Shown one piece after another: positions 5,094 through 62,872 of a stretch of DNA of 64,000 bases. Under the pieces are notes generated by a model that searched no databases, had not been told where the DNA came from, and saw nothing but the letters and a program-made list of their open reading frames with translations. The stretch's first letter is position 1. Every line of letters starts with the position of its first letter. The DNA is from Candidatus Yanofskybacteria bacterium RIFCSPLOWO2_01_FULL_42_49 (lineage in GTDB: Bacteria; Patescibacteriota; Minisyncoccia; 2-02-FULL-40-12; GWA2-44-9): the NCBI GenBank assembly GCA_001795615.1, contig MGKI01000004.1, positions 22,324-86,323 on the forward strand. Reading direction: 5' to 3'. Both the position numbers and the translations under genes were made by a program.

Positions 5094-5204
5094 TGTTAAA
5101 TAGTATCGTTTTTAAACTCTTTTTACAATTAAAGAACCGCATTCGCTGGATGTCCGTCGGGAGACGGACCGCGAATGCGGTTTGGACTGTTTAAGCCCTA
5201 TGGA

Positions 5205-5657
5205 CTAGTTGCACCGGCCGGCCGGTGCTTCGTGGAGTACCACAATGGAGTGGTACTCACAGTCATCGCGGGTTGGGAACCCACGGGACTGCCAGCCGGG
5301 CACCGGCGGTTGGACTGGAGTCGGCTGCTGGACCACCGGCGCCGGCGTTGCCGCCGGTACGATTGCAGCCGGTGCCGTCGGTGAAACCACTGGTGAACCT
5401 GCAAAACCGCCACCGAGCCAGACCCCAAGCACCACCATACCGACAAGCACAGAGATACTTCCGATGATGAACCCGACGAGCTTGACACGAGCCCACAGTG
5501 GGTCCTGTGCTACCTGCCTCAACAGCAACGGCTCAGAGAGCCGCCGCAATTCAAAATTCATCTCGCCCGGCCGGGGTGGCCGAGACGGTGTCGGTGTGGG
5601 CGGCGCCGGTGTTACCGGCGCCGCCGGAGTTGTTGGTGTTGCCATCGTTACCTCCAT
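5205..5657 (-). CDS. Hypothetical proline-rich membrane protein, inside the high-GC island
   Basis: 150-aa ORF with Pro/Thr/Ala-rich termini and a central TM segment. GC-rich DNA gives many spurious overlapping ORFs, so this call is tentative. Confidence 0.35.
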   Translation of the reverse strand: MEVTMATPTTPAAPVTPAPPTPTPSRPPRPGEMNFELRRLSEPLLLRQVAQDPLWARVKLVGFIIGSISVLVGMVVLGVWLGGGFAGSPVVSPTAPAAIVPAATPAPVVQQPTPVQPPVPGWQSRGFPTRDDCEYHSIVVLHEAPAGRCN

Positions 5658-6418
5658 ACCAGGACGAGACCGTCCCGGCCTTCGGGCTTTGTACGGACTG
5701 TATCCGCCGTGCCCGAGAAACCGTCAACTACCATGGAGAGCACCTCGGCCTCGTAGGAAGCGCGGGGATCCCCACATTCCGACTGACGAGGAAGAAGATC
5801 CACATACCAGGTTCCGTTCTGGTACACTTGCACGGGATTCCTGCCCTCGTTCTTGAGGGTAGCCATCCCCTGTTCTAAACAGCCGCGATGGCTGCCGAAC
5901 AAGGAACCGCCACTATTCGCCTGTTCACGCAGACGCGGATTCCAGCCGTTCTCACGGCCGGGACCGGACGACACCTGCGCCGTCTGCGGCATCGGTGGAA
6001 TCTGATCGGGCAAATCCACGACTACTTCCTTATCGTCGTCGTCACCCCTTTTGCTGAATGCCCAGGCAAGAAGTCCAGGGGCAGCACCAATACCGGCACC
6101 AATCGCGGTACCTTTCCAACCGTGGCCAGTCATGGCACCAATTGTAGCCCCGATCTCGGCCCCGGCAATCGCAATCCGAACCGGGCGAGAAAGCCGGCGA
6201 CCGAAGCGGTCATACATCCCGTAGAACTGACCTCCTCGAGTATAGCCGTACATGTCGCCATACCACATCCAGCGATCCACCATGTTCAGGTTGGACTGCA
6301 GGAGCTGGTCTGCCGGACCGTACTGGCCGGCGAAGATCTGCGCATTGGCCGGCGTGACGCCGGCAAGAAGCGCGAACACGAACGCGAGAGCGATGAACAA
6401 CGTCTTTTTCATTCTCAT
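5648..6418 (-). CDS. Secreted glycine-zipper protein, inside the high-GC island
   Basis: Signal peptide MRMKKTLFIALAFVFALLAGVTPANA and Gly-zipper AIAGAEIGATIGAMTGHGWKGTAIGAGIGAAPG; RBS GGAAGGA upstream of MRM. Confidence 0.5.
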   Translation of the reverse strand: MRMKKTLFIALAFVFALLAGVTPANAQIFAGQYGPADQLLQSNLNMVDRWMWYGDMYGYTRGGQFYGMYDRFGRRLSRPVRIAIAGAEIGATIGAMTGHGWKGTAIGAGIGAAPGLLAWAFSKRGDDDDKEVVVDLPDQIPPMPQTAQVSSGPGRENGWNPRLREQANSGGSLFGSHRGCLEQGMATLKNEGRNPVQVYQNGTWYVDLLPRQSECGDPRASYEAEVLSMVVDGFSGTADTVRTKPEGRDGLVLVWR

Positions 6419-7011: not shown

Positions 7012-7386
7012 TTAAACCCCGACATTCTTGAAGTGCGTTATTTTTGCCACTCCCCTATCTTTGTTTAATTCAATCGCGATTATGTCTATCTGCCATGACC
7101 GATTGTCGAGATTATTTTGCTGGATGTATGTTTGGGCGGCGCGTTTTATTCTTTTTATTTTGTTGTCATTTACGCGCTTTTCCGGCTCAAAGCCCTTTGG
7201 AGCCGGACTGTCGCTGGCTTTAACCTCAACGAAAATAATTATTCCCTCCTTCTCGGCAATAATGTCTACTTCGCCCCAAGGTTTGCGATAGTTCCTACCG
7301 AGAATCTTATATCCCCTCTTCTTCAGAAATTCTTCCGCCAAACCCTCGGCAAAACTTCCAAAGTCAATGTAGTTGTGGTTTTTCAT
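7012..7386 (-). CDS. yraN: YraN family endonuclease (UPF0102)
   Basis: GEVDIIAEKEGIIIFVEVKA core typical of YraN/Holliday-junction-resolvase-like proteins. Confidence 0.75.
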   Translation of the reverse strand: MKNHNYIDFGSFAEGLAEEFLKKRGYKILGRNYRKPWGEVDIIAEKEGIIIFVEVKASDSPAPKGFEPEKRVNDNKIKRIKRAAQTYIQQNNLDNRSWQIDIIAIELNKDRGVAKITHFKNVGV

Positions 7387-7399
7387 TTTATTTATTTAT

Positions 7400-7640
7400 C
7401 GCATAGTCATTGTAATCTCTCAACCCCCTTTTTCTCAATCCTCGCTTCAAGACAAGTTCTTCTCAGACACGCCTCCAGTTCCCCTGCGAGGAACCTCGGC
7501 TACTTTCGCCCGACTTTTTCTTCGGCGGTGAAACGATCATACCGCCTCTGACCATGCAAAAAGTCGGGTCTCTAGTGTCTTTGAAGAACCTGCCTTGAAG
7601 CTCGTATGTACAAAGAAAGTGGTAAAAGAGAAACAAGAGG
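7400..7640 (-). repeat. Partial copy (C) of the mosaic intergenic element family; matches the middle and 3' half of copy A
   Basis: The reverse complement of 7440-7590 aligns at about 80% to 10850-10975, including gacactagagacccgac, gggcgaaagtagccgagg and ggaggcgtgtc. Confidence 0.6.
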
Positions 7641-7756
7641 ACCGCTTTAGATGTTTCCATTCCAAGCTATTGAACCATGACATGCTCTTGCGTTTTATTT
7701 GGTTTTGGTGTAATATATGTTGAATCAGTAGGCACATACAGGATAGGAGGAGCCCG

Positions 7757-7942
7757 ATGTTTGAAAATCATGCCAGCCGAGTAGCGACCCTCATTACTGA
7801 AGAAATAAAGAAAATGAGCACTGATGAGTTGCTCGCAGCTCTTGAAGATCTGCATCTTCAGTGGGATGACTATGGACTTTGTTTTGATGTTGAGAGCTAT
7901 GATCGAGAGCTCAAGGCAGAGAAATCCAGAAGAGAGCTTTAG
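7757..7942 (+). CDS. Small hypothetical protein (61 aa)
   Basis: Strong RBS AGGAGG 7 nt upstream of the ATG, inside a 1.2-kb gene-poor stretch. Confidence 0.35.
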   Translation: MFENHASRVATLITEEIKKMSTDELLAALEDLHLQWDDYGLCFDVESYDRELKAEKSRREL

Positions 7943-8327
7943 TCCCCATCATTTGCCGGTTAATCCCGGCTTTTTAAATATTCAAGGCCATATTAAACTC
8001 AAACTCCAAAGAATTTTTTAAGAAATACCCCTAAATTTTGCCCAACAAAGTTTTCCCAATAGCGACACTTGACATTCATGCCCTGTTAGGGCTTGTACGA
8101 GATATGTTAAGATCCGATGGACTGGAACATGGGCCTCGGAGGCTGTCTGTGGCACTGAATTGCTAGATCTGAGAAAGGACCAGCAATATCTCACAATTTT
8201 AATTTCAACTATCGAGGGGGGTAACGCTTCTGTCGACGAAATCAAGAATTATGCCGATTCGATACGACAGGCCCAAGATAGACGCCTGAATCGTTCATTA
8301 GAGTAAAAACGCTTTTGCTATGCCGTT

Positions 8328-8347
8328 GCCCGCCTTGCGGGCTTTTT
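8328..8347 (+). terminator. Rho-independent terminator
   Basis: GCCCGC-ctt-GCGGGC followed by TTTTT. Confidence 0.55.
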
Positions 8348-8562
8348 GATACTCCTGTGGACACTGCGGGTTGCTAAATTTGACTTAAAATGCTAACCTT
8401 GAGAGGTAATCCTCGTGCAAGAGGATTTTGATGTTTTAGGCTTGAAATAGCTCTTTTCGGCTGAAATTCTCAGTTTTAAATTTAAAAACCATTAGTACTT
8501 ACCTCAAAAAACTGGGGAAAATACTCAAACTAAAAGACTTAACCAATAGCCCCGGTTTTCAT

Positions 8563-9606
8563 TTGTATGGAACTATCGTTTTAGCTGTTACGATACTAAT
8601 AATCAAGGGTTCCGGCGGTGACGGACAAACAACTCTTTTTAATACTTTTGTTAAGAGATATATCGAAGAAACTTCGGCTTCAATCCTTTCGTCAAACAGG
8701 CCGAATACTAGCGGCTATTTGGCTGATATAAGCGGCCTAACGGCCTGGGAAAACGGATCTGCGGCAATGGCAAAGCCAGGACAAGGAGGACCGGAACCAA
8801 GCCTAGAACCAACCACAATACAAGATAATTCGGTGTTTTCTCACAATCCCGCCGCAACAGATTATATAGAAAAAACAGCCGATAAGAGAGTTCAGGTTGT
8901 TGAATACACTGTTCAACCGGGAGACAAGTTATCATTTATAGCGCTCGACTACGGGGTAAGCATAGAATCAATAATGTGGGCCAACAACTTGAGAGATTCC
9001 GACAGTATCAGACCGGAACAAGTATTAAAAATACCCCCTATTTCGGGGATAATTCACATAGTTAAAAAGGGGGACACGGTTGGTTCAATAGCTAAGAAAT
9101 ACGGCGTAGAAGTAGAAAATGTGGTTGCCTACAATGGTTTGCCACAAGACGGACAACTTCAAATTGACGACGAGATCATTGTGCCAGACGGAAAGATCAA
9201 GGGTTCATCCGGCATAGCGACTACAAGAACATCTCCCTTTTCCCATCTTCCAAGTTTGGGTGATTATTTCCTTATTCCTACGACTGGCTACAACTGGGGT
9301 CGGATTCATGGTAGAAACGGTGTTGACATTGCCAATTCTTGCGGTACAAACATTTTTGCGGCAGCCAACGGCAGTGTTGCCACATCAGATGCTGTCGGAT
9401 GGAACGGCGGTTTTGGTAAATACATAAAATTAATACATCCCAACGGAACAGAAACCCTATACGCCCACAACAGCAAACTGCTGGTTGGCGTTGGAGAAAC
9501 CGTCTCAAGGGGCCAATTGATAGCTTCAATGGGCTCAACCGGCCGTTCAACCGGCTGTCACCTCCATTTTGAAGTTCACGGAGCCAGGAATCCTCTGGTT
9601 AAGTAA
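8563..9606 (+). CDS. LysM-domain M23 family metallopeptidase
   Basis: Two LysM repeats (YTVQPGDKLSFIA.., HIVKKGDTVGSIAKKYGV) and an M23 core (HGRNGVDIA...GSTGRSTGCHLHFEV). Confidence 0.85.
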   Translation: MYGTIVLAVTILIIKGSGGDGQTTLFNTFVKRYIEETSASILSSNRPNTSGYLADISGLTAWENGSAAMAKPGQGGPEPSLEPTTIQDNSVFSHNPAATDYIEKTADKRVQVVEYTVQPGDKLSFIALDYGVSIESIMWANNLRDSDSIRPEQVLKIPPISGIIHIVKKGDTVGSIAKKYGVEVENVVAYNGLPQDGQLQIDDEIIVPDGKIKGSSGIATTRTSPFSHLPSLGDYFLIPTTGYNWGRIHGRNGVDIANSCGTNIFAAANGSVATSDAVGWNGGFGKYIKLIHPNGTETLYAHNSKLLVGVGETVSRGQLIASMGSTGRSTGCHLHFEVHGARNPLVK

Positions 9607-9680
9607 TGTTTTGACAAAAACAATGTATTGACATAATTTATAGCAGTATTAAGTATCCCAATTAACAAGCGGGAGGGGAA

Positions 9681-9869
9681 GTGAAATTTGACGACTTACC
9701 CAAGGAAATAAAGGAATTTAAAGACAAGTTCGGAGAACCAGAGTTGCTTCGTTTTTGGAGTCAACCGATGATTCACACTGGGGGATTCAGCCCGGCCCAA
9801 CTCTGTGAAAAAGGCGATAAAACCAAGATACAGGAAATAGTAACCCTACTGAATCACTATTTATCATAA
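9681..9869 (+). CDS. Small hypothetical protein (GTG start)
   Basis: RBS GGGAGGGG upstream; a strong terminator lies immediately downstream. Confidence 0.4.
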   Translation: MKFDDLPKEIKEFKDKFGEPELLRFWSQPMIHTGGFSPAQLCEKGDKTKIQEIVTLLNHYLS

Positions 9870-9873
9870 CAAA

Positions 9874-9895
9874 GGCGCTAAAACAGCGCCTTTTT
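9874..9895 (+). terminator. Rho-independent terminator
   Basis: GGCGCT-aaaac-AGCGCC followed by TTTTT. Confidence 0.7.
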
Positions 9896-10145
9896 AACGA
9901 ATCAATGGGTGAGCCGTTTAAGATTCGCCACCCCACCTAGTCAGCGATTGCTTTTCGGCATCACAGATATTCGCTGATTAGGTGTGGGGGTTTCTTACAG
10001 AACACTTCGACTAGCTCAGTGTAAATACTTTCGACAGCTCGACCAAGCTCACTTCAGACTAGCTCAATGTAAGCAAAAGTATAGTTATTTGACACTTCAA
10101 GTACATTATAATATCTTGTGGCAACAGCACTTTAACGAGGATAGA

Positions 10146-10583
10146 ATGGCAAAAAACACTGTGGTTGAGGTATCGTTTGGACTAGGAAATACGGTACGAG
10201 TTGAGGTCTCTCCGGCGGGAAATGTAGAAGTTTCGGGAGTCCGATATGTGAATGTAACCCACCAAGTTCAGCCCTCGCCAGAAAAAAGTGGAGACGCAAA
10301 AGAGGTAACTACTTTCGTAGCACCCATTATTGGCTACGGAATGTGGCAAGTAGACTACATTCAAGGAGTTGAAGTAACATTCCAGCCGATATCCGGCTCT
10401 CATTGGGCCTCTCTCGGTTTAGCCCGACCAAGTTTTGCAGCGATCTTGTCACCTAGCGACGAATCAGTTGAAGTTTCTTCAATTGACTGCTACGGAAAGG
10501 AAAAACACATCCTTGGCGTAATGCCTTCAAGAACTCATGTCGTGGCGTCACAAAGTAAGGATGAGGGGGTAGTAGAAATGTAA
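10146..10583 (+). CDS. Hypothetical protein; the ORF track starts it at 9984 but an RBS-supported ATG lies at 10146
   Basis: GAGGA RBS before MAKNTVVEV; the upstream part of the longer ORF overlaps direct repeats. Confidence 0.5.
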   Translation: MAKNTVVEVSFGLGNTVRVEVSPAGNVEVSGVRYVNVTHQVQPSPEKSGDAKEVTTFVAPIIGYGMWQVDYIQGVEVTFQPISGSHWASLGLARPSFAAILSPSDESVEVSSIDCYGKEKHILGVMPSRTHVVASQSKDEGVVEM

Positions 10584-10722
10584 AAGAAAGGTAGTAAGCA
10601 ACAACTATATCAAGATGGTTCAGATTTCTAACTTAGCGGCCAATTTGGCCGTTTTTTGATGGATACGCAACGGTTTATTATCCATGTTTCGCGCGGAACA
10701 CTGGAGGAGTGTGGGATTCTTG

Positions 10723-11002
10723 CCGTCTTTGAATCACTTTGACGAATCGAGTAAAAGGATGAGGTTGATAAGGAAAGATTCCGATAATCACAGGTCGAAC
10801 GCCAAGCAAGGTAGCTTAAGACTCTAGTCATGACGAGACACTAGAGATCCAACCTTTTGCACGGTCGAGGGCAGTATAATCGTTTAACTGCCCGAGAAAA
10901 GGTTGGGCGAAAGTAGCCGAGGTCCCTCGCGGGGGAACCGGAGGCGTGTCGAGGATGGCTAGAGTCTGAAGCGAAAGATGAGGAATTGTGATGAGAAGGC
11001 GG
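10723..11002 (+). repeat. Mosaic intergenic element copy A, possibly a structured RNA
   Basis: 5' block ccgtctttgaatcactttgacgaatcgag...ggtcgaacgcc and 3' block agatgaggaattgtgatgagaagg are shared with copy B (62166-62371); the middle is shared with copy C (7400-7640, - strand). The terminal helix shows a compensatory change and G-U pairs. Confidence 0.6.
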
Positions 11003-11017
11003 TGAGGCCGAACGACA

Positions 11018-12553
11018 CTAGGCAAGTTCCGAAAATATATTTTCGTTTACTCTAAACGCCAATGCTTCGGTAATGTGATTTTCTCTGATTATATCCGACC
11101 CCGCCAGATCCGCTATTGTGCGACCCAGCTTTTTGATTTTGTGGTAAGCCCTCATTGAAAGATTTTTATTAGTAATGGCATTTTTCAGGATTCTTTCGGC
11201 TTCCGGCTCAAGAACACAGTATTTATCTATGTTTTTAAAGTTAATCTCGGCATTGGTAAAAATGGGGGATTTAGCGAATCGGTTTTCTTGTATTTTTCTT
11301 GCCGTGACAATAGAATTCTTCATTTCGTCAATATTTACAATCTTTTTTTGTCCATTTCCGTCAACTGTTTCGCGCGAAACATTTATTTGTATATCCATTC
11401 TATCCAACAGCGGCCCCGATATTTTCTTTCGATATCTAATCACATTGATAGGGGAGCAGATGCAATTTAGTTTGTTGTCGCCATAATTACCGCATGGACA
11501 AGGATTCATGGCCGCTACAAGCATAAATTTGGCCGGTAGAGTGGCCGAACCGGCGGCTCTTGAGACAGTGACCATTCCATCCTCCAGCGGCTGTCGTAGG
11601 GCCTCTAAAACACTCCTGGGGAACTCGGGTAATTCGTCTAGAAACAGCACGCCTCTGTGCGCTAAGCTTATCTCTCCTGGTTTTGGAAATGTTCCACCAC
11701 CGATAACCGCCACAGCTGAAGTGGTATGGTGGGGATCTCTAAACGGCCTCTTAAAAGATAGGTAGGAATCCTTGATAAGTCCGGCAGAGCTGTGGATTTT
11801 GGCAACTTCCACCGACTCTTCTAGATTCATTGGGGGTATAATTTCTGACAAGGCCTTTGCCAGTATCGTTTTGCCGGAGCCAGGGGGACCAAACATCAGA
11901 ATATTATGACCGCCGGCCGCCGCTACGAAAAGAGCCCTCTTTGCGCTTTCTTGGCCTTTTATAAACGAAAGGGAATCACCACTATTAGCTTCATTTTCTG
12001 GTCTTTGTCCGCTAAAAACATAGGGGGAAATAGGGGAAAGATTAGTGATGTGGCCTATAACATCATTGATCGTGGCGGCGCCAATAATATTTATGCCGCT
12101 TATTACAGACGCTTCTTTAGCGTTAACTACTGGGACTATCAGCTCTTTAAAGCCTAACTTTTTAGCCAGGATGGCTACAGACAGTACTCCGTTTGCATGC
12201 CTAAGTGAGCCGTCCAAAGATATTTCCCCGATAATAAGCCGCTTTTCTGGGTTAAATTTTATCTGTCCGCTTTCAAGAAGACATCCGAGAGCGATGGGTA
12301 AGTCATAAGATGGGCCTTCTTTTTTAACATCAGCGGGGGCGAGATTTATTATAATTTTCTTATGTTTTCCGCTTGGGGGAGTTAATCCGCTGTTCTTTAT
12401 CGCTCCAGCCACTCTGTCTTTTGATTCTTTGACCGACTTGTCTGGTAAACCGACTATATTCAAAGAGAAAAGGCCGGGGCTTGAATCAACCTCGACCTCT
12501 ACAAGCTGCGCGTCTATTCCTACAACAGAAGCAGAGAATATTTTAACCGGCAC
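11018..12553 (-). CDS. comM: Mg-chelatase-like ATPase ComM/YifB
   Basis: 511 aa; N-terminal Lon-like domain, AAA+ Walker A GPPGSGKT, C-terminal ChlI-like domain. Confidence 0.9.
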   Translation of the reverse strand: MPVKIFSASVVGIDAQLVEVEVDSSPGLFSLNIVGLPDKSVKESKDRVAGAIKNSGLTPPSGKHKKIIINLAPADVKKEGPSYDLPIALGCLLESGQIKFNPEKRLIIGEISLDGSLRHANGVLSVAILAKKLGFKELIVPVVNAKEASVISGINIIGAATINDVIGHITNLSPISPYVFSGQRPENEANSGDSLSFIKGQESAKRALFVAAAGGHNILMFGPPGSGKTILAKALSEIIPPMNLEESVEVAKIHSSAGLIKDSYLSFKRPFRDPHHTTSAVAVIGGGTFPKPGEISLAHRGVLFLDELPEFPRSVLEALRQPLEDGMVTVSRAAGSATLPAKFMLVAAMNPCPCGNYGDNKLNCICSPINVIRYRKKISGPLLDRMDIQINVSRETVDGNGQKKIVNIDEMKNSIVTARKIQENRFAKSPIFTNAEINFKNIDKYCVLEPEAERILKNAITNKNLSMRAYHKIKKLGRTIADLAGSDIIRENHITEALAFRVNENIFSELA

Positions 12554-12604
12554 AATTTTTAGCGACTAGTGACTAGTGCTTAGCGACTAGAATTAACGAC
12601 TTCG

Positions 12605-18954: not shown

Positions 18955-19866
18955 GTGGATATTAAGAAAACAAAAATTCAATATTTGGAATATCTGGAAA
19001 TAGAGAAGAATCGCTCACAGAAAACCCTTGAGAACTACGGACGGTATTTGGACAGGTTTTTTGGATTTGCCAACATTTCAAATCCCGGCCAGATAGACGA
19101 CGAACTCGTTAGGCAATATCGACTTCACCTTAATCGCCTCAAGGATGCTGATGGCAATAACTTAAAAAAAGTAACTCAAAACTACCATATCATCGCTCTG
19201 CGTAACTTTCTGAAATATCTAGCCAAAAGAAACATTCCGTCCCTGGCCGCGGAAAGAGTTGAGTTGGGAAAACAAGAACAACGAGAGGTAACATTTCTTG
19301 AGCCGGATGAATTGAACCGGTTATTAAATTCGCCGGACGGGAACGGTCTTGATGCCTTGCGCGATAAGGCGCTACTCGCCACACTATTCAGCACCGGAAT
19401 GCGCGTATCTGAATTATGCTCTCTGGACAGAGACAGAATAGACATAAACAGGGGAGAGGTGACTGTTAGGGGTAAGGGGGGCAAATTGCGGCTGGTGTTT
19501 TTATCAGACGGCACAAAAGATGCCCTCAGAAATTACCTTGGAAAAAGAGCTGATGTCGACGAAGCGCTTTTCATAAGGATTCCTAAGTCTAAAATATTTT
19601 TAAAAGACAGCAGCCTTAGACTCACACCGAGAAGCGTCCAAAGAATAGTAGGAAAATGCGCAGTCAAAGCCGGTATCTCTGGAAAAAATGTATCGCCGCA
19701 CACCTTACGCCATTCTTACGCTACTGACCTTCTCCGTAACGGCGCCGATATCCGCTCCGTCCAAGCAATGCTCGGCCACGCTTCAGTGACAACCACCCAG
19801 ATCTATACTCATGTTACAGATAAGCAGTTGCGTGAAATTCACAAGAAGTATCACAACAAGAAATAA
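18955..19866 (+). CDS. xerC: Tyrosine recombinase XerC/XerD
   Basis: C-terminal HTLRHSYAT...LGHASVTTTQIYTHV catalytic motifs; GTG start. Confidence 0.9.
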   Translation: MDIKKTKIQYLEYLEIEKNRSQKTLENYGRYLDRFFGFANISNPGQIDDELVRQYRLHLNRLKDADGNNLKKVTQNYHIIALRNFLKYLAKRNIPSLAAERVELGKQEQREVTFLEPDELNRLLNSPDGNGLDALRDKALLATLFSTGMRVSELCSLDRDRIDINRGEVTVRGKGGKLRLVFLSDGTKDALRNYLGKRADVDEALFIRIPKSKIFLKDSSLRLTPRSVQRIVGKCAVKAGISGKNVSPHTLRHSYATDLLRNGADIRSVQAMLGHASVTTTQIYTHVTDKQLREIHKKYHNKK

Positions 19867-26960: not shown

Positions 26961-27120
26961 GTGTTGGGCCCCGCACCAGAGCGAAGCACGGTGCGGGACT
27001 AGTCCAGAACCGTGATTCGACTTTTTCAAGGCCTTTTTAAAGGAAGGTTTGTCGAATCTCTGGTTCTGGGGATAATTAAACATAATCTCTAGATAGTTGT
27101 GTGGTATACTAACTTTATAT

Positions 27121-28197
27121 ATGGCATTCAATCTATTCAAGTCAAAGGGAAAACTGGGCATAGATATCGGCACCTCGGCCATAAAAATAGTCGAACTTGA
27201 AAAAGAAGGGGGGCGGTTTGCTCTAAAAAATTACGGCCTCTTTGAGTTTAAGGGATCCAATAATACGCAACAAGCGGGGGGAGAGTCAAAACAGGTTCAG
27301 AACATTCTTAAACTTCCCGACGGAGAAATAATCTGGGGGATTAAAGAAGTTCTTAAGAAGGCAAAAATTAAAGCAACCAATGTTGTGGCTTCAATACCGT
27401 CTTTTTCGACATTTGCCACCGTCATCGAAATGCCCTATCTGTCGGAACAAGACCTTGCCAAGTCGTTGCCCTTTGAGGCGCGCAAGTACATCCCCGTTCC
27501 ACTTAACGAGGTTGTCCTTGATTGGTCAATTATAGATGTGCCACCTGTTCAGGCCAATAAATCCACGATGGTAGAGATATTCTTGGCAGCAGTGCCAAGA
27601 GACGAGACATTAAGATACCAGAGAATAATGCAGGGAGCAGGTTTGCACCTTCGCGCCCTTGAACTAGAGAATTCAGCCCTTATAAGAGCTCTGCTTGGGA
27701 ACGACTTGAGCCCGACAGTAATAGTGAACATCGGCGGAAGAAGCACTTCCGTAGTGATAGTAAATAGGGGATACGAGAGACTAAGCCACAACTACGAAGT
27801 CGGGGGGTTTGAGATAACCAAATCAATCGCCCGCTCGCTGAATGTAAGTTTGGAAAAAGCCGAGGAACTAAAGAAAAAAATGGGGATGAAAGAAGTCGAC
27901 GAAAATGTAATTAACAGCGCCATGAAGTCGTTGATCGACATGATGGTATTTGAAACCAGAAAAACAATAACCAACTACGAGGAAGCCAAAAACCAAAAAA
28001 TATCGAGAGTACTCCTTGTCGGCGGTTTGACCAACATGCCTAGTTTCGCTAACTATTTCCAACAAAAACTTGGCAGAGAAGTTTTTACGGGCAATGCGCT
28101 TGCCAGAGTTGTCTACCCGCAAACGCTAGCTCCGGTTACGCAGGAATTAGCGAGTATTTTCTCCGTTGCGGTTGGTTTGGCGATGAGAGAAATCTAG
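27121..28197 (+). CDS. pilM: Type IV pilus assembly ATPase-like protein PilM
   Basis: Actin-like fold start GIDIGTSAIKIVEL; operon context with pilNO. Confidence 0.85.
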   Translation: MAFNLFKSKGKLGIDIGTSAIKIVELEKEGGRFALKNYGLFEFKGSNNTQQAGGESKQVQNILKLPDGEIIWGIKEVLKKAKIKATNVVASIPSFSTFATVIEMPYLSEQDLAKSLPFEARKYIPVPLNEVVLDWSIIDVPPVQANKSTMVEIFLAAVPRDETLRYQRIMQGAGLHLRALELENSALIRALLGNDLSPTVIVNIGGRSTSVVIVNRGYERLSHNYEVGGFEITKSIARSLNVSLEKAEELKKKMGMKEVDENVINSAMKSLIDMMVFETRKTITNYEEAKNQKISRVLLVGGLTNMPSFANYFQQKLGREVFTGNALARVVYPQTLAPVTQELASIFSVAVGLAMREI

Positions 28198-28363
28198 ATA
28201 AAATGACCAATACCCAATATCCAATACCCAATAAAGCTTTAAAAATGTTTAAAACATTTGAAAATTTGAAAATTGGTTATTGATTGGTTGTTGAACACTT
28301 AGTAATTGGTTAATAAATATGTGTGTATAAGTTTTGTCCAGTATTAAGATATAATTAAAAAGT

Positions 28364-28921
28364 ATGGCCAATCAAGGCGGATTACAACTACTTCCTGAAA
28401 CAAGGAAGAAGATAGAAATTATAACCCCCGGAGAAAACAGACTGATTATCGCCGGAGGTATCGTATTTGTAATTGCGGCGATTTTAGCCGGGGGATTTTC
28501 TTTCTACGCTAACTCTTTAGAAGATAAGCTAACCGCCTTAGATACAGAGATAATCGCGCTTGAGCAGAAAAGAGACAAACAAGCCGAACAAAATATCCTT
28601 GTTTTTAACAAACAGGTATCTATGCTTTCGGGTTTATTGGCCAATCATGCGTATTGGACTACGGCTTTTTCAAAAATAGAAGGGCTTCTACAAAACCAGG
28701 TCCAACTAAACAGCATGACCACATCCTTATCAGACAGCAAAATTGACTTTGGGGCAACGGCTTTAAATTATACTACTATAGCCCGCCAAATCGCAGCTTT
28801 TCTTTCTGACGAATCGATAGAAGATATCGCCCTTAACCGGGTCAGTACCCTTACTAACGGCCGGCTTGAATTCAACATGCAAATTGTTTTTGACAAAAGT
28901 AAGTTTTTGAAATCAAGATGA
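28364..28921 (+). CDS. pilN: Type IV pilus assembly protein PilN
   Basis: Single N-terminal TM followed by a coiled-coil; position after pilM. Confidence 0.65.
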   Translation: MANQGGLQLLPETRKKIEIITPGENRLIIAGGIVFVIAAILAGGFSFYANSLEDKLTALDTEIIALEQKRDKQAEQNILVFNKQVSMLSGLLANHAYWTTAFSKIEGLLQNQVQLNSMTTSLSDSKIDFGATALNYTTIARQIAAFLSDESIEDIALNRVSTLTNGRLEFNMQIVFDKSKFLKSR

Positions 28922-29460
28922 CACCAGCAAATAAAAATTACATGGGAATCGGTTTGGCTGGTTTGGCCATAATTGCATTTTGGATTTTTGGAATGCCAGC
29001 ATGGGACAGATCCTCTCTACTCAAAGATGCAATAGCGGAAAGAGAGGACATATTGTCCGCAAGAGAAGAAGTCCTGAAAAAAATAGAGGATTTAAATGAA
29101 CAGTACAGGAACAGAGCCAATGATGTTGCCAGAATATCATCTATCGTTCCCGGCACTAAAGGCGTCGCAGAACTAGTTTCAACCATTGAAGCGATAACCC
29201 AGCAAACCGGCATTCAGCTTACTGAGATAACAATGGGCGGCGACAACAAGAAACAGCAAGAAGAATTGCAAATTATATCAATAGAACTCGGCCTAACTGG
29301 AAGTTATCTGTCTCTAACATTGTTCCTCGACCTTATAGAAAAAAACTTGAGAATGATAGATGTCTTTGAAATAAACATCAGCCGAACAGCAGCATCGGAA
29401 ACGCAGACAGCCCTGAATTTTAGAGTTAAGGCAAATGCCTATTACTTAACTGTGAAGTAA
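28918..29460 (+). CDS. pilO: Type IV pilus assembly protein PilO
   Basis: N-terminal TM, coiled-coil; overlaps the pilN stop. Confidence 0.6.
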   Translation: MTPANKNYMGIGLAGLAIIAFWIFGMPAWDRSSLLKDAIAEREDILSAREEVLKKIEDLNEQYRNRANDVARISSIVPGTKGVAELVSTIEAITQQTGIQLTEITMGGDNKKQQEELQIISIELGLTGSYLSLTLFLDLIEKNLRMIDVFEINISRTAASETQTALNFRVKANAYYLTVK

Positions 29461-29528
29461 CCAACGACTGACAACTAACGACCAGCGACAAAATTGTCGT
29501 AAGTCGTAAGTCGTAGGTCGTAGATCAG

Positions 29529-29810
29529 TTGATGGCCAATCAACCAACCACAAACAAGTCTTTAATGCTATTAATGCTCGTCGCGGCTTTTGCTGTCGGT
29601 TATTTATATTACTCCCAGTCAATACAACCGGCTCAACTGCCGATAAACCCGCCGCCACTAACCGCAAAAGACGATCTTACGATGTTTAAAAACCTAACAA
29701 TTGATTTTTCTATACTTGATAACAAGAGCTTTAAATCTTTAAAAACATTCGGTGAATCGCCGGTTAAGCCCGGAGTTACTGGTAAAAGAGATATATTCGC
29801 CCCCTTTTAA
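29529..29810 (+). CDS. Small membrane protein in the pilus operon (possibly PilP-like)
   Basis: 93 aa with a single TM; location between pilO and pilB. Confidence 0.4.
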   Translation: MMANQPTTNKSLMLLMLVAAFAVGYLYYSQSIQPAQLPINPPPLTAKDDLTMFKNLTIDFSILDNKSFKSLKTFGESPVKPGVTGKRDIFAPF

Positions 29811-29874
29811 TAGCCAACAAGCTAGTAAGCTAACAAGCTAGTAAGCTAAAGTTTAAAAATGCTTACAAGCTTAC

Positions 29875-31656
29875 ATGCTTACCAGCTTACATGCTGAATT
29901 GGTTAAAATTCCTCAAACATTAGTAGAAGAATTTATAAAACAAGGCCTTATCTCCGAAGAGGACATTAAATACCTTGAAGATCTGGCTCAGACCCAAAAT
30001 AAAGATCTTGGCCAAATGATAATTGACCAGGGAATTATGTCCGAGAACGATCTTTTAAATTTCAAATCCAGAGTATATCAGCTTCCGATCGTAAAGCTTG
30101 AAGAAATAGAACTGGATAAAGAGGCGCTAAAAGAACTCCCGGAGGACATAGTCGCATTCTACAAAATTATTCCTTTTGCCAAAGAAAGCGGAGTCTTGAG
30201 GATCGGTATAGTTGACCCAGAGGATATAAATGCTCTCGAAGCACTTAAATTCCTTTCCGGCCAAAAAGGACTGACAATAGAAAAATATCTAATAGGATAC
30301 AAGGACTTTGCCAATATAACCAGATCATACAGAACCCTGACCGGCGAGGTAGGGGAGGCTCTTGAATCGCTAGCTGAAGAACTAGAAAAAAAAGTAGTAA
30401 AAGAGGGGCCGGCAAAAATAAAACTTGAGGAGCTAAGCGCAGAGGCGCCTGTTACCAGAATTGTAGCCGTCATTGTAAGGCACGCCGTTGAATCTAGAGC
30501 ATCAGATATACACATAGAGCCCTTCGACGACCGAGTAAGGGTTAGATTCAGAATAGACGGCGTTTTGATAACTTCCCTGACCTTGCCTAAAAATCTCCAT
30601 TCTGCCGTTGTAACCCGCATTAAAATCCTTTCCGATTTGAAAATCGACGAAACACGGCTGGCTCAAGACGGAAGATTCGCCACCAAACTCGGGGAAAGAA
30701 AAATTGATTTTCGCGTATCCACTTTTCCAACCAAAAACGGAGAAAAAGTAGTAATGCGTATATTAGACCCCTTGGCAGGCGTTGTTACCTTGGGAGATCT
30801 TGGTCTTGAAGGCAGATCCCTTGATATTCTTCAACGGGGAATGACCAAGCCCTTTGGCAGTATTTTGATAACCGGACCGACCGGTTCAGGAAAATCAACG
30901 ACTCTCGCGGCCATGTTAAGAGTAATGAATACCGAGGACATCAACATCGTAACGCTGGAAGATCCGATAGAATATTTCGTGGATGGAGTTAATCAGTCAC
31001 AAGTACACGAAGAGATTGGTTATACTTTTGCCAACGGATTGAGACATATCCTTAGGCAAGACCCCGATGTGATAATGGTTGGCGAGATCAGAGACAAAGA
31101 GACAGCCGGTCTTGCCACTCAAGCCGCTTTAACCGGCCACATTGTCCTTTCTACTCTCCACACCAATGACTCAATGGGAGTAGTGCCTCGACTAATTGAC
31201 ATGGGTGTTGAAAAATATTTAATCCCGCCGACAGTAAATGTTGCCGCCGCGCAACGACTTTTGCGTCGCCTCTGTCCTGATTGCAAAGTTAAAGCAAAAG
31301 CAAACAGCGGAGAAGAAAAAATTATAAATGACGCCATTAAAGACATGCCATCCGAATACTATAAAAGTTTATTCTCAGAAAAAGGATACACAATTTATAA
31401 GCCCAATACCGATAATCCCTGTAAAACATGTGGGGGGAAAGCTTTTAAGGGCAGGCTAGGCATATTTGAAATGATGGAGATGACGGATGAATTTGAAAAA
31501 ATAATATTAGGCACCCTATCGGAGGCAGCGATGAGAGAAGAAGCAAAAAGACAAAACATGATTACCATGTTCCAGGACGGAATTTTGAAGGTCTTAAATG
31601 GGATGGTATCATTGGAAGAGCTGCTTGAAGTAGCACAAGCCAATGAATCGGCGTAG
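29875..31656 (+). CDS. pilB: Type IV pilus assembly ATPase PilB (GspE family)
   Basis: N-terminal GSPII_E repeats, Walker A GPTGSGKSTT, tetra-Cys motif CPDC...CKTCGG. Confidence 0.9.
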   Translation: MLTSLHAELVKIPQTLVEEFIKQGLISEEDIKYLEDLAQTQNKDLGQMIIDQGIMSENDLLNFKSRVYQLPIVKLEEIELDKEALKELPEDIVAFYKIIPFAKESGVLRIGIVDPEDINALEALKFLSGQKGLTIEKYLIGYKDFANITRSYRTLTGEVGEALESLAEELEKKVVKEGPAKIKLEELSAEAPVTRIVAVIVRHAVESRASDIHIEPFDDRVRVRFRIDGVLITSLTLPKNLHSAVVTRIKILSDLKIDETRLAQDGRFATKLGERKIDFRVSTFPTKNGEKVVMRILDPLAGVVTLGDLGLEGRSLDILQRGMTKPFGSILITGPTGSGKSTTLAAMLRVMNTEDINIVTLEDPIEYFVDGVNQSQVHEEIGYTFANGLRHILRQDPDVIMVGEIRDKETAGLATQAALTGHIVLSTLHTNDSMGVVPRLIDMGVEKYLIPPTVNVAAAQRLLRRLCPDCKVKAKANSGEEKIINDAIKDMPSEYYKSLFSEKGYTIYKPNTDNPCKTCGGKAFKGRLGIFEMMEMTDEFEKIILGTLSEAAMREEAKRQNMITMFQDGILKVLNGMVSLEELLEVAQANESA

Positions 31657-31799
31657 TGCCTAGCGACTAGTGCCTAGCGACTAAAAATTAGTGTCTAACA
31701 ATTTAGTGCCTAGCGATTAGTAATTTCTTACTAGTGGCTAGTGGCTAAATCCTAATGGCTAACTTTAGTGGCTAGTGGCTAGTGGCTAGTGGCTAATCG

Positions 31800-32864
31800 G
31801 TGGATTACAAACAATACCTAGACGAGCTTCTATTCACAACAGCTGAAAACGGAGCTTCAGATTTGCACATTTCTCCAGGCCACTATCCGTCAATAAGAAT
31901 AGACGGCCGGCTTATTCAAGTCGCGGATAAGCAGATACTAGATAAGGAAATTTCTGAAGGAATTGTTTTAGAGTTGGTCGGATCGGAAAGAAAAGATCGT
32001 TTTATATCCGAAAAAGAGCTCGATTTTTCATACGAGTATGCTCAAAAATATAGATTCAGAGTAAATACATACAACACTCGGGGCGGAATGGCAGCGTCTC
32101 TGCGTTTAATCCCTAATAAAATACGGACAATAGAAGAATTGGGGTTGCCCCCCATAATCAAGATATTCAGTCGACTTTCCCAAGGATTTGTTTTGGTGGT
32201 CGGTCCCAATGGCCACGGCAAATCAACCACATTATCCGCAATTATAGATCTCGTAAACAAAGAACGAGCTGAAAAAATAGTCACCATCGAAGATCCTATC
32301 GAATATATTTTCACTCCCGACAAAAGTATTATTGATCAGAGGGAAATATATCAAGACACATTCTCGTTTCATAAAGCCCTCCGTTCAACATTCAGACAGA
32401 ACGTCAATATCATTATGGTGGGAGAGATGCGAGACTACGAAACAATGAGCGCAGCAGTAACAGCCGCCGAAACCGGCCATCTTGTTTTGGCGTCACTTCA
32501 TACAAACAGCGCTTCTCAAACTATCGAACGCATCATTGATAGTTTTCCTCCAAATCAGCAGACTCAAATAAGAAACCAGCTAGCCAACACTATCTCCGGG
32601 ATAATTTCACAAAGATTAATACAACGAATAAAGGGTGGCCTTGTGCCAGCCACAGAAGTAATGATCGCGACAACAGCCGTAAGGACGCTGATCAGAGACA
32701 ACCGGCCGAGACAACTGGATCTTGTAATAGAGACCAGCCAAGATGTCGGAATGATGCCGCTGGATAGATCGCTTGCTGACTTGGTTAGAAGAAAGGAAAT
32801 ATCTATAGACAGAGCTGAATTTTATTCGACCAATTCGCTAGAGTTAAGAAATCAGTTAAAATAA
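31800..32864 (+). CDS. pilT: Twitching motility ATPase PilT
   Basis: Walker A GPNGHGKSTT, PilT-type Asp/His boxes. Confidence 0.9.
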   Translation: MDYKQYLDELLFTTAENGASDLHISPGHYPSIRIDGRLIQVADKQILDKEISEGIVLELVGSERKDRFISEKELDFSYEYAQKYRFRVNTYNTRGGMAASLRLIPNKIRTIEELGLPPIIKIFSRLSQGFVLVVGPNGHGKSTTLSAIIDLVNKERAEKIVTIEDPIEYIFTPDKSIIDQREIYQDTFSFHKALRSTFRQNVNIIMVGEMRDYETMSAAVTAAETGHLVLASLHTNSASQTIERIIDSFPPNQQTQIRNQLANTISGIISQRLIQRIKGGLVPATEVMIATTAVRTLIRDNRPRQLDLVIETSQDVGMMPLDRSLADLVRRKEISIDRAEFYSTNSLELRNQLK

Positions 32865-32974
32865 TGCGGACCTACGAACAAGTTACGCGAACGCTACGAA
32901 CAAGAGGCGGACCGATGTGGGCTGTTCGGTTCGCAATGTTCGCATAGTAGTTCGCATCGTTCGCATTATATTTT

Positions 32975-34183
32975 ATGGATTTTTCTTACAAAGTTAAAAC
33001 CAAAACCGGAGAAATAGCAGAGGGAACAGTGGACGCCCCTGAAGAAAACACAGCCGTTAGCATTCTCCACAGCAAGGGCTATGTAGTTTTGTCTCTAACA
33101 CCCCTAAAGAAGGGGGTTTTAACATCTGACATGGGCCAAATTATTTCAAGGCCCAACATTAAAGACATCGTAATTTTTACAAGACAATTATCTACTTTAG
33201 TAGATGCTGACATGCCGATCAGCGAGGGACTGAGAACACTAGCTAAACAAAGCGAGAAACCAATGTTCAAGAAAATAATTACAGAGGTTTCTGAATCTGT
33301 AGAAGCGGGGTCTTCTCTGTCAAATGCCCTGACGGCTTATCCTAAACTATTCTCCACATTTTACATAAAACTGGTGCAATCAGGCGAAATTTCAGGAAAA
33401 CTTCAGGAGTCGCTTCTTTATCTTGCTGAGTATCTTGAAAGAAGCAGGGGCATTAATTCTAAGATACGCGGAGCACTTGCTTATCCGGCTTTTGTTGTTT
33501 TCGCATTGGGCGTGGTCACATTAATTATGGTGATATATGTGCTCCCTCAATTACTATCAATCTTTGAGGAAGCCGGGGTAGCAGATCTGCCCATGACAAC
33601 CAGAATTCTTATTTGGGTTACAACTTTTGTTAATAAATATCTGTATTTTTTGATGACGGGCGTCTTAGTCTTGGTATATGTTGGCTGGACATATATTAAA
33701 ACCCCGGCCGGCAAAGAAAGGCTAGATGATCTTAAAATAAAATTTCCTTCGCTGGGAGTAGTAATAAGAAATCTTTACCTTGCCCGTATTTCTGAGAGTT
33801 TATCTACTCTGATAAAATCCGGAATACCAATATTAGAGGGGATAAAGATAACATCCGAATTGGTTGGTAATGAAAATTATAAAAAAATAATGCTGGCCGC
33901 CGAAGAAAATGTAAGAAACGGGGGCACGATATCAGAAGTATTGGTGAAATATAAAGAGGTGCCACCATTGTTTTCATCAATGGTTGCTATCGGGGAGAAG
34001 ACCGGAAAATTAGACTCCATGCTAGAACACATATCCAAGTTCTATAAATCCGAATCAGATAATACCATCGATAACATTTCTCAATTGATAGAGCCTATTC
34101 TTGTTCTTGTTCTTGGTTTTGCTGTTGCCATATTGGTATCAAGCATTTTGTTACCAATATATAACTTGGTTGGAATAGCATAA
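32975..34183 (+). CDS. pilC: Type IV pilus platform protein PilC (GspF family)
   Basis: Two T2SS-F domains, three TM segments. Confidence 0.9.
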   Translation: MDFSYKVKTKTGEIAEGTVDAPEENTAVSILHSKGYVVLSLTPLKKGVLTSDMGQIISRPNIKDIVIFTRQLSTLVDADMPISEGLRTLAKQSEKPMFKKIITEVSESVEAGSSLSNALTAYPKLFSTFYIKLVQSGEISGKLQESLLYLAEYLERSRGINSKIRGALAYPAFVVFALGVVTLIMVIYVLPQLLSIFEEAGVADLPMTTRILIWVTTFVNKYLYFLMTGVLVLVYVGWTYIKTPAGKERLDDLKIKFPSLGVVIRNLYLARISESLSTLIKSGIPILEGIKITSELVGNENYKKIMLAAEENVRNGGTISEVLVKYKEVPPLFSSMVAIGEKTGKLDSMLEHISKFYKSESDNTIDNISQLIEPILVLVLGFAVAILVSSILLPIYNLVGIA

Positions 34184-34367
34184 ACTAAATCTCTAAATCC
34201 TAAACTCCAATCTCTAAACAATCTCAAAATTCAAAATATTTTTGATATTTGGATTTTGCCTGTCTGCCAGTAGTCAGAAATTTATTTAGAAATCAGAGAT
34301 TAGAGATTTCAACTACTGTGGATATCTTGCGTTGTACTATTAAAAATGCTTTAACTATAATAAAGAC

Positions 34368-34871
34368 ATGATAAACACAGGGAATAAGTCACAAAAAGGT
34401 TTTACCTTGGTCGAGCTATTGGTGGTCATAGCCATCATTGGAATTTTAGCAACTTTATTATTGCTTCAATTGGGAGTAGCCCGTCAGCGTGCCAGAGACG
34501 CAAAACGCATAGCAGATATAAACCAAACCCGAACCGCTATTGAGCTTTATTTCGACGATAACGGCCAATATCCTCAACAAGCAACATTTGCAGGACTGGG
34601 TGCGCTTTTTGTCCCCAAATACCTTACGCTTTTACCAGTAGATCCTCTAAATGTAGCGCCAAATACTTATAATTATAACTACAACGGCAACACTAAATAT
34701 CAAGTCTGGGGAGAGTTAGAACAATGGGCGCAAGCTCTGGCTAGCGACGCCGACATAAACTCTACAGCCGGCGGATGGACGGGACAGACAGTTAACGGTG
34801 CAACTGACGCAAAAACAAACTGCACCACTGCGGCGGCTGACTGCGTGTACGATCAGGGCCAATCACAGTAG
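34368..34871 (+). CDS. pilA: Type IV major pilin (prepilin)
   Basis: Class III signal KGFTLVELLVVIAIIGILA. Confidence 0.85.
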   Translation: MINTGNKSQKGFTLVELLVVIAIIGILATLLLLQLGVARQRARDAKRIADINQTRTAIELYFDDNGQYPQQATFAGLGALFVPKYLTLLPVDPLNVAPNTYNYNYNGNTKYQVWGELEQWAQALASDADINSTAGGWTGQTVNGATDAKTNCTTAAADCVYDQGQSQ

Positions 34872-34975
34872 TAATTAGCCACTAGCAATTAGTCGCTAGT
34901 TATTAGTAACTAAATCAAAATCTCGCCACTAGGCGAGATTTTGATAACGACAGATAAATACATTATTATTAGATC

Positions 34976-35734: not shown

Positions 35735-36137
35735 CGAGACCCTACTCGTTCAGGTTATTCTTGTCGTTGTAGTCGTCGGGATAGTAGTGTTTTTTGACAA
35801 ACTGTCCAACGGAGAGTGGTTTTCTGTGGATGACGGATCTAAAAGAGAGGCGACGCTGATAATTGACTTTGATAACATGAGAAGGACATTCGAGGGAGAG
35901 GTGATTGAAGAAATGACTATTTTAGACGCCCTTAACGCATCGGTTACCGCCGGACAGATAAAATTGACCTATACCGTGGACGACAACAACCATACTTCTG
36001 TTGCTGAGATTGACGGACATTCTGCCGTTTTTGGTAAAAACTTCTTTTTCTATTTGAACGAAAAAAAGATCCACACAAAAGACCTCAATAGGACCTTCGT
36101 TGATCCGGGGGATAAGATAACAATCAAGTTGGAATAA
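35700..36137 (+). CDS. Hypothetical membrane protein
   Basis: N-terminal TM (LLVQVILVVVVVGIVVFF). Confidence 0.45.
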   Translation: MNSKKYPDTFISETLLVQVILVVVVVGIVVFFDKLSNGEWFSVDDGSKREATLIIDFDNMRRTFEGEVIEEMTILDALNASVTAGQIKLTYTVDDNNHTSVAEIDGHSAVFGKNFFFYLNEKKIHTKDLNRTFVDPGDKITIKLE

Positions 36138-36274
36138 ATTATTCTAATTTCTAATTAACCTAATTATTCTAAAGAAGCCCTAATTCCAAAATATCTAATG
36201 CCTAAATTTTTAGTCATTTAGTCATTGGGATTTATTTAGGTCAATTAGAATAATTAGAGCAATTAGGTTAATTT

Positions 36275-58545: not shown

Positions 58546-58546
58546 C

Positions 58547-62108: not shown

Positions 62109-62113
62109 AACAA

Positions 62114-62371
62114 GACACTAGAGACCCGGCCTAACTATTTAAACACTCCCCTAAGCGAGGCCCTACCGTCTTCGAATCACTTTGACGAATCGAGGAAGAG
62201 GACAAGGTTGGTATGAATGGATTCCAATAATCATAGGTCGAACGCCGAGCAGCGAGTCCTTGCGAGCGTAGCGAGGAGGCAAGCGAGGGTTACCTGTGAT
62301 TATTGGCTAAATCCATACATATCATACCGAGTCCGATGACAAGATGAGGAACCGTGATGAGAAGACACGGT
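62114..62371 (+). repeat. Mosaic intergenic element copy B, possibly a structured RNA
   Basis: gacactagagacccgg, then the 5' block ccgtcttcgaatcactttgacgaatcgag, a long imperfect helix ggtatgaatggattccaataatcataggt / acctgtgattattgg..aatccatacatatcatacc, and the 3' block agatgaggaaccgtgatgagaagacacgg. The terminal helix GUCUUC/GAAGAC is shared with copy A. Confidence 0.6.
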
Positions 62372-62386
62372 AAAGCCGAGCGAAAC

Positions 62387-62872
62387 CTATGGGTACGGCT
62401 TAATTATCACCCTTCTCTGCGGTTCTGCTCCAATGCTTTCTGTTGCTATATCGGGGCAAGCCGCAAGTTCCATATGAACGATTCTTCTCTCGTATGCAGA
62501 CATAGGGAACAATGCTTCGGCTTTTTGAGTATTTCTAACTCTCGTTACGGCTTGCTTGGCAACATCAACAAGATAATCTGCCCGCGATTTTCTATAATCG
62601 TTTATATCAAGAACGATTGTTCCTTCTTTGCCGTCTTTTACAAGCATAGCCCTTAGGACATGTTCCAGCGCTTTAAGATTTTGGCCGTTTTTACCTATCA
62701 AAAATCTGGCGTCATTGGGCGTTTGGATTGAAACAACAACGGCGTTTTCTTTCCGATCGTCACTAGATTCTTCCTTCGCCTCAATCTGGCAGTCGATATT
62801 CATAAAACTGGCCATCTTCTTAACGGTAGCTTCTACTTCTTCTTTATTTAATTTTTTGTTCGTTTCGTTCAC
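62387..62872 (-). CDS. jag: RNA-binding protein KhpB/Jag (KH + R3H)
   Basis: C-terminal R3H (SAYERRIVHMELA), KH domain; follows yidC. Confidence 0.85.
   Translation of the reverse strand: MNETNKKLNKEEVEATVKKMASFMNIDCQIEAKEESSDDRKENAVVVSIQTPNDARFLIGKNGQNLKALEHVLRAMLVKDGKEGTIVLDINDYRKSRADYLVDVAKQAVTRVRNTQKAEALFPMSAYERRIVHMELAACPDIATESIGAEPQRRVIIKPYP

Follow-up and report, generated by a model that had tools for sequence, protein, structure and literature searches.

A structured RNA module absent from Rfam lies upstream of yraN in a Candidatus Yanofskybacteria genome

The yraN intergenic region and its surroundings

The DNA analyzed here, referred to as the window, is a stretch of 64 kb from a Rifle aquifer scaffold. 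Two homologs of its YraN protein, from MAGs named Candidatus Yanofskybacteria, share 92% and 88% identity with it. Genomes of the Candidate Phyla Radiation are tiny and tightly packed, and to our knowledge almost nothing is known of the non-coding RNA of these bacteria. Upstream of yraN lies a 1.2-kb stretch (7387-8562) that contains the element described below (Table 1).

An initial annotation had given this stretch one short ORF with a ribosome-binding site and a terminator near 8328-8347, and both are there. The ORF follows a GGAGG ribosome-binding site, is called in all assemblies of the organism and has homologs of 61-62 aa with 64% and 52% identity. Terminator-like hairpins lie at 8328-8342 and behind the ORF. 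A further ORF, 8160-8306, returned no homolog. The suggestion that the stretch might hold additional non-coding genes found no support, since 7975-8350 folds no better than shuffled sequence (z +0.28) and an Rfam covariance search of the stretch found nothing. In the relative L009 the segment 7682-8369 is replaced by unrelated sequence. Given this replacement, a single real gene and no further detectable structured RNA, we regard the interval as a cassette site of variable content, with the element at its border.

At the far side of this interval, 8368-8441 is a conserved block upstream of a LysM/M23 peptidase gene. It comprises 75 nt with the hairpin AATCCTCGTGCAAGAGGATT and is conserved in L009 and L031/L032; judged by eye, L046, L048 and L049 have it as well. 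The block may serve as promoter or leader, and has no Rfam match. The larger interval comM - M23 peptidase - yraN (7620-10700 of the window) carries small genes that differ from relative to relative, being NUDIX, corA, small ORFs or none in L028, L031, L033, L044, L046, L048 and L049, and it too has structured modules at its border.

Table 1. Position of the element, its parts, related copies and neighboring features in the window
Feature	Position	Strand	Remarks
yraN (UPF0102)	7012..7386	minus	downstream of the element; PF02021
Promoter-like site TTGAGA-18-TACAAT	7409..7438	minus	separates the element from the yraN start codon (7386)
Copy C, complete stand-alone YZ module (C-type)	7429..7617	minus	model R1 199.4 bits, fold energy, conservation
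P1a 3' strand GAAGAACUUGUCUUGAAGC	7444..7462	minus	partner of 7583-7601
Arm P3	7471..7500	minus	GCC-GA-GGUUCCUC-GCA-GGGGAACU-GGA-GGC
Junction strand CGAAAGUA	7501..7508	minus	invariant in 12 sequences
Arm P2	7509..7568	minus	11-bp helix CCCGACUUUUU/AAAAAGUCGGG, internal loop, inner hairpin GGCGGU-loop-ACCGCC
P1b 5' strand GACAC, then junction strand UAGAGA	7569..7579	minus	invariant or nearly so in 12 sequences
P1a 5' strand GCUUCAAGGCAGGUUCUUC	7583..7601	minus	19-bp helix with 7444-7462, including two G-U pairs
Small protein gene, 61 aa	7757..7942	plus	followed by terminator-like hairpin 7955-7970
Copy A, whole	10723..11018	plus	X block 10723-10808, W block 10975-11018
YZ module nested in copy A	10799..10987	plus	model R1 177.6 bits
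Orphan 17-nt fragment AGACACTAGAGACCCGG	62112..62128	plus	identical to the 5' edge of copy C; upstream of copy B
Copy B, B-type rod-shaped RNA	62140..62400	plus	X/W scaffold, long inner stem, apical GGUCGAACGCC-hairpin-GGAGGC

The window has other repeats and gene features. Many intergenic spots are occupied by tandem heptanucleotide repeats of the TAGCGAC, CTAGTGG and TAATGGC types (381-425, 12558-12602, 31652-31796, 34866-34912, 37291-37335 and 37855-37942), and one contig of a relative (L023) ends in the same type. An inverted repeat of 60 nt, 87% complementary and built of short TAATT/TAGTCA-type units, has its arms 25 kb apart (36207-36266 and 61258-61317). Direct repeats 1155 nt apart (57456-57528 and 58611-58707) flank ORFs of a conjugation-like module encoding a PrgI-family protein and a VirB4-like ATPase (57523-60450). 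A UvrD-type helicase gene at 47760-50909 contains an intein (Pfam Intein_splicing, residues 295-622), and an ORF with a homing-endonuclease-associated HNH_repeat lies between tRNA-Pro and tRNA-Ala genes (45038-45940). A complete type IV pilus cluster (27097-38272; PilM, PilO, two T2SSE ATPases, PilC, prepilin peptidase and several pilins) is syntenic with L023. Gene calls are uncertain in 5175-5900, where the DNA is GC-rich and long overlapping ORFs run on both strands in several frames.

Structure and composition of the modules

According to the initial annotation, part of a mosaic element recurs here for the third time, in inverted orientation. This is confirmed by blastn, in which the reverse complement of 7466-7580 aligns with 10836-10950 in copy A over 115 nt without gaps (84.3% identity, E 1.3e-31). 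The conserved blocks that had been listed (GACACTAGAGAYCC, TTTTGCAYGG..., GGGCGAAAGTAGCCGAGGT... and GGAGGCGTGTC) are all found in the copy, and the 5' block CCGTCTTYGAATCAC... is missing from it as had been noted, matching the window at 10723 and 62166 only (up to three mismatches allowed). The 14-mer GACACTAGAGAYCC occurs three times (7566-7579 minus, 10837-10850 plus, 62114-62127 plus) for a chance expectation of 0.01. The extent given, 7440-7590, was slightly too small, the conserved element spanning about 7429-7617.

The copy had also been called partial, and here we disagree. It is no degraded fragment. It is a self-contained module with a 24-bp closing helix of its own, it has orthologs on at least five other contigs (L007, L009, L017, L021 and L023), and it outscores copy A on a model of the family. 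That covariance model, R1, was built from an alignment of 12 sequences and finds the module at full length at 7429-7616 on the minus strand (199.4 bits, E 2.6e-49), and again within copy A at the lower score of 178 bits; the similarity is thus not mere simple-sequence composition. It finds exactly these two copies in the 64-kb window, with 12 bits at the best other site and 25 bits on the opposite strand of the same site. The two are 84% alike, and a third on a contig of the same organism (L020) is 81% alike. We refer to this unit as the YZ module. It is non-coding, as had been proposed, because indels in its loops between copies disrupt every reading frame.

On the minus strand the inverted flanks of the module (7444-7470 against 7575-7601) form a closing helix of 19+5 bp, in which a 3x3 internal loop separates the perfect 19-bp helix P1a from the 5-bp helix P1b, where GACAC pairs with GUGUC at 7466-7470. 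The closing helix is capped by a three-way junction from which a long arm P2 and a short arm P3 project. The inner P2 hairpin has a loop of 11 nt that starts with AUGAU in this copy; in relatives the loop has 11-13 nt, and in most other copies it starts with AUAAU. Folding of 7436-7610 gives -84.2 kcal/mol on the minus strand (z -8.2) and -65.8 kcal/mol on the plus strand, so that the minus strand is better folded by 18 kcal/mol. Copy A has a similar asymmetry between its strands (-74.1 vs -60.7).

The fold is well supported by covariation. The RNAalifold consensus of the 12 sequences has 49 pairs, and 24 of these have changes on both sides. Within the alignment 95% of cells pair. Shuffling the columns lowers this to 86% and displacing the partners by 1-3 columns to 38-52%, and none of 500 shuffles matched any of the observed measures of pairing. 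All 16 pairs of the outer helix vary, 14 of them on both sides. In P2 every cell pairs and eight pairs have compensatory changes, two of which distinguish the window copy from its ortholog in L009. These two fully compensated differences between orthologs suggest selection for the structure in place, as expected of a functional RNA gene. Several loop positions never vary in the 12 sequences, nor do the junction strands UAGAGA and CGAAAGUA, and what variation the helices have is compensated. Wobble pairs are strongly biased, with 49 G-U or U-G compared to 5 A-C or C-A, from which we deduce that the folded strand is minus at copy C and plus at copy A. A search for pseudoknots among the unpaired columns lengthened P1b by one pair and gave nothing else. 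Compensatory changes beyond controls, confined to one strand, are the generic mark of structured RNA, and the YZ module has them. We conclude that it is a real and well-supported structured RNA module.

Copies A and B are built on a different plan. Both contain an X block (CCGUCUUYGAAUCACUUUGACGAAUCGAG...) and a W block (...AGAUGAGGAAYYGUGAUGAGAAG), which pair as a closing stem containing tandem G-A/A-G. In copy B and its homologs (L004, L005, L017, L021, L023, L044 and L046) this scaffold surrounds a purine-rich internal loop, an inner stem of ~30 bp and an apical hairpin. Copy A is without the 3' half of the B-type inner stem, and in that position it has a YZ module, whose closing helix is of other sequence and equal pairing. 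Copy A is therefore a composite and copy C the module alone. The 3' end of copy A abuts the stop codon of the convergent comM, and that of copy B the stop codon of jag. C-type flanks (CUUUGUMCAYACGAGC...GCGAGGRUUGAGA) are common to copy C, L007, L009, L017, L021 and L023.

There are at least three module types (YZ, B and D), and they have small features in common, namely tandem G-A/A-G at the helix base and a GCC-hairpin-GGAGGC arm. As read from the sequences, every type has C-G / G-A / A-G at the base of its helix. B is similar in its apical part to J2/3 and P3 of the YZ module. This likeness, together with the common pairs at the helix bases, suggests that the types have a common ancestry. 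A strain variant of the window organism (L002 1580-2240, L006 5066-5680) has a copy A with a different X block, and just upstream of corA a D-type module head-to-head with it; L006 has a 17-nt deletion in the W block and L002 an extra W block.

Relatives, turnover and the search for known classes

A scan of metagenomes with the pattern GCGAAAGTAGCCGAGG-N12-30-GGAGGC returned 22 loci, of which 17 are true homologs. They come from groundwater metagenomes of Candidatus Yanofskybacteria-like bacteria. A GTDB scan with a W-block pattern found homologs of copy B in one Yanofskybacteria MAG and one Patescibacteria MAG. Copy C is conserved at 86% in L007, L017, L021 and L023 and at 87% in L009. Its neighbors vary. 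The element has yraN downstream in the window and L009, lies downstream of yraN in L007, and elsewhere adjoins def (L017) or a LOG-family gene (L021) or follows ligA (L023). Synteny between the window and L023 extends over 10 kb; in the window the ligA-gatC spacer is only 45 nt long and lacks the element.

Via the yraN loci of relatives we compared the slot upstream of this gene. It contains a C-type (YZ) module in the window and in L009, a D-type module in L028-L030 (yraN 88% identical to that of the window) and L044 (92%), a B-type module in L046 (84%), and in L048 (80%) a remnant of C fused to a B tail. In L031 (86%), L033 (70%) and L049 (81%) there is nothing. In every filled slot the module is oriented toward yraN, and a -10-like box follows immediately after its end. 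In the nusB-rnc spacer the module lies in opposite orientations in L015 and L018. Head-to-head pairs of modules, 10-40 nt apart and of varying combinations of types, occur in L002, L007, L017, L021 and L023, and several contigs terminate near a module copy. Eight contigs of the window organism from different samples are identical over 7387-8562, so copy C is stable or fixed in this population. In L044 the 9-mer CTGTATAAT, a -10-like box, is seen by eye on both sides of the D module upstream of yraN (9730-9750 and 9975-9990), a repetition that might reflect target duplication or promoter duplication.

The YZ-module family is absent from Rfam. At the gathering threshold of Rfam 15 the whole window yields tRNAs only, and at E values up to 10 there is nothing relevant for copies C, A and B, the D-type or nine related loci. 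The best result, RsmY at 23 bits for a threshold of 57, falls on a D-type relative, and YZ has no such match. The conserved strings of the module occur in no paper of the literature searched, and keyword searches gave nothing relevant. Phage and plasmid records have no blastn match to it, and a scan of viral contigs with three patterns gave 0 matches.

A number of specific assignments were considered and rejected. A MITE should have conserved terminal inverted repeats and many near-identical copies; here the arms of the closing helix differ between subfamilies while the center is conserved, and the copies are few and diverged as described above. No target-site duplication is evident in the sequences at L015, L018 or the window, read without a clean empty-versus-filled pair, and the CTGTATAAT on both sides of the L044 D module is a candidate. 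A riboswitch or 5' leader should keep a constant position and strand ahead of functionally coherent genes; here roughly half of the copies are convergent with or antisense to their neighbors, and the genes downstream have no relation to one another. Integron attC sites have RYYYAAC ... GTTRRRY boxes, which are missing at the helix base, and the only recombinase found is Xer-like and 11 kb away. For a DGR TR/VR pair the differences between copies A and C should be adenine-specific, and they include T-C, G-A and C-T; there is also no reverse transcriptase in the window. UAGAGA and CGAAAGUA do not fit the CUGAUGA/GAAA of a hammerhead, no Rfam ribozyme matches, and a hammerhead-like reading of GUGAUGAG...CGAA was rejected too. 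For copies B and C, tRNA/tmRNA, SRP, RNase P, 6S and 5S fail for want of a model match and of their conserved motifs. Reading the GUGAUGA motifs as C/D boxes or k-turns gives chance-level scores of 12-16 bits, and the tandem G-A has no 3-nt bulge. An invariant TATAAT in the P2 loop is not a promoter, because TTGCAT lies only 12 nt upstream, which is the wrong spacing, and because the region is base-paired with covariation. No conserved frame with homologs supports a coding reading. A plus-strand relic of an X block at 7655-7690 was seen by eye only and found no support from nhmmer at E 1e-3.

Possible roles and comparison with known systems

We favor, at roughly even confidence, the view that 7429-7617 belongs, as an intact copy, to a family of structured non-coding elements of ~190 nt that is restricted to this lineage and whose members are accessory and relocate. 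The module would be transcribed, its G-U pairing pointing to a single-stranded RNA form. The closing helix of ~24 bp would be a natural substrate for a double-strand RNase of the RNase III type, and the three-way-junction core may be the part that is selected or recognized. The family would then persist as accessory, relocating units and would serve neither as housekeeping RNA gene nor as yraN leader. This reading draws on the swapping of modules in one slot, the nesting, relics, orphan pieces and flips of orientation, the absence from some close relatives, and the contig breaks near copies. Several observations count against it. A consensus scan found no promoter-like site before copies A, B or C, there is no terminator consistently 3' of the element, and the window contains no transposase, reverse transcriptase or other obvious mobilizing enzyme, only an Xer-like tyrosine recombinase (18955-19866). 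Paralogs within a genome are 80-85% alike, where a recent burst would have left near-identical copies. Conservation is lowest in the arms of the closing helix, which in a MITE would form the terminal repeats. The compensated pairs between window and L009 and the stability of the copy in eight identical contigs point the same way.

A less probable but serious proposal is that the element is the gene of a stable small RNA that acts in trans and belongs to a small set of paralogs. Its junction core would bind a protein or ligand, and its long paired-end helix would protect the RNA or direct its processing. The invariant junction and loop nucleotides beside covarying stems are consistent with this, as are the compensated changes between orthologs and the age of the paralogs implied by their divergence. 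The element is also found between divergent genes, where no promoter but its own could transcribe it; a TGTATAAT -10-like box precedes the D-type module in L044 (by eye only), and a terminator-like hairpin lies 3' of the C copy in L007. Set against these are the lack of a consistent promoter or terminator, including any sigma-70 promoter between head-to-head pairs, the replacement of one module type by another at a single slot, and the nested and fragmentary copies. The element is also missing from 20, 20 and 10 kb of L031, L033 and L049 and is decayed in L048, and is therefore dispensable. No CsrA, Hfq or L7Ae-type partner was found in the DNA searched. A trans-acting small RNA and an accessory, relocating element are compatible and do not exclude one another. 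It seems rather unlikely, on present evidence, that the junction core is a new functional RNA fold, either a self-processing ribozyme or a protein- or ligand-binding domain, which CPR bacteria plug into different RNA scaffolds and move between intergenic slots as a portable module. If so, it would be a bacterial counterpart of RNA-derived mobile modules.

We consider it improbable that the element acts in cis on yraN, as a 5' leader, a riboswitch-like sensor or a transcriptional insulator. It does point to yraN, with 43 nt between its end and the start codon; the slot has a C, D or B module toward yraN wherever it is filled, and roughly one copy in two precedes a gene on the same strand. However, a promoter-like site stands between element and gene, so the element is probably outside the yraN mRNA, and by eye a TGTATAAT-type -10 box is kept at the equivalent place downstream of the element in relatives. 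Moreover, roughly half of the copies are convergent with or antisense to their neighbors (copy A, L014, L018, L023), downstream genes are as different as yraN, def, rnc, rpsA and a LOG-family gene, and relatives without the element retain yraN. Also improbable, in our estimation, is a fold that would act in single-stranded DNA as a site of recombination or transposition, like attC or the hairpin ends of IS200/IS605. Such a site would explain the cassette-like variable genes adjoining the element, and modules do lie at the border of the gene-variable comM-M23-yraN region. The strand-specific wobble bias would also suit G-T pairs in DNA, and there is a tyrosine recombinase in the window. Yet the sequences contain no GTTRRRY/RYYYAAC-type cores, both strands are in play in head-to-head pairs, a three-way junction whose strands are invariant and rich in purines is more usual in RNA, and neither an integron integrase nor a Y1 transposase was seen. 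There remains hardly any room for the idea that nothing functional lies here, the similarity being due to chance or composition, or to a frameshifted protein gene that was missed. ORFs of 52-66 aa do traverse the element on both strands. The blastn and covariance scores and the covariation controls speak against chance, and the loop indels against any frame; the translation of the ORF in copy A matches a single database protein, from a contig of 1761 bases (L016), which is itself the translation of another module copy. The tests run refute this explanation.

The covariance model is ready for use in annotating CPR genomes, where the modules explain some assembly breaks and gene-poor gaps. The family is a tractable case in which to ask whether structured RNA modules can be mobile or exchangeable units in bacteria, and should its core turn out to be catalytic or to bind protein, this would amount to a new class of RNA.

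Bacterial mosaic intergenic repeats include the pneumococcal BOX, the E. coli BIME/REP, the Rickettsia palindromic and the Neisseria Correia elements, and when transcribed such repeats are sometimes substrates of RNase III. Like them, our elements are non-coding, 100-250 nt long and strongly hairpin-forming, combine modules in different orders, and are scattered between genes of small genomes in either orientation, present or absent between close relatives. They differ in that the YZ center, a three-way junction, is conserved while the would-be terminal-repeat arms vary, and in that YZ copies are few and old instead of numerous and near-identical. In addition, YZ helices covary, head-to-head pairs are the rule and no target duplication was seen. 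With attC sites YZ has in common a conserved structure of variable sequence, strand-specific folding and a position beside variable genes; it has no R/L core boxes, is much larger, has a branched core and has no integron integrase nearby.

Among RNAs, the multi-copy small RNA families such as RsmY/RsmZ/CsrB have, like the modules, several paralogs per genome, purine-rich loops containing GGA and intergenic sites that differ between species, whereas here the GGA motifs are in internal loops and not hairpin loops, and no csrA was seen in the DNA searched. B-type modules resemble 6S RNA in being rods of 210-240 nt whose ends are paired, and in combining a closing stem and a long inner stem with a large central internal loop rich in purines. 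Unlike 6S RNA they have no Rfam 6S match even at E 10, the strands of the loop are strongly conserved in sequence, one genome (L046) has more than one B copy, and there are chimeric derivatives. In architecture alone, YZ is like 5S rRNA and the pRNA of phi29, with a core of ~115 nt in which a closing helix leads into a three-way junction with two arms, each with an internal loop; it differs from them in the lengths of the arms, in the loops, in having no Rfam match, and in its genomic context.
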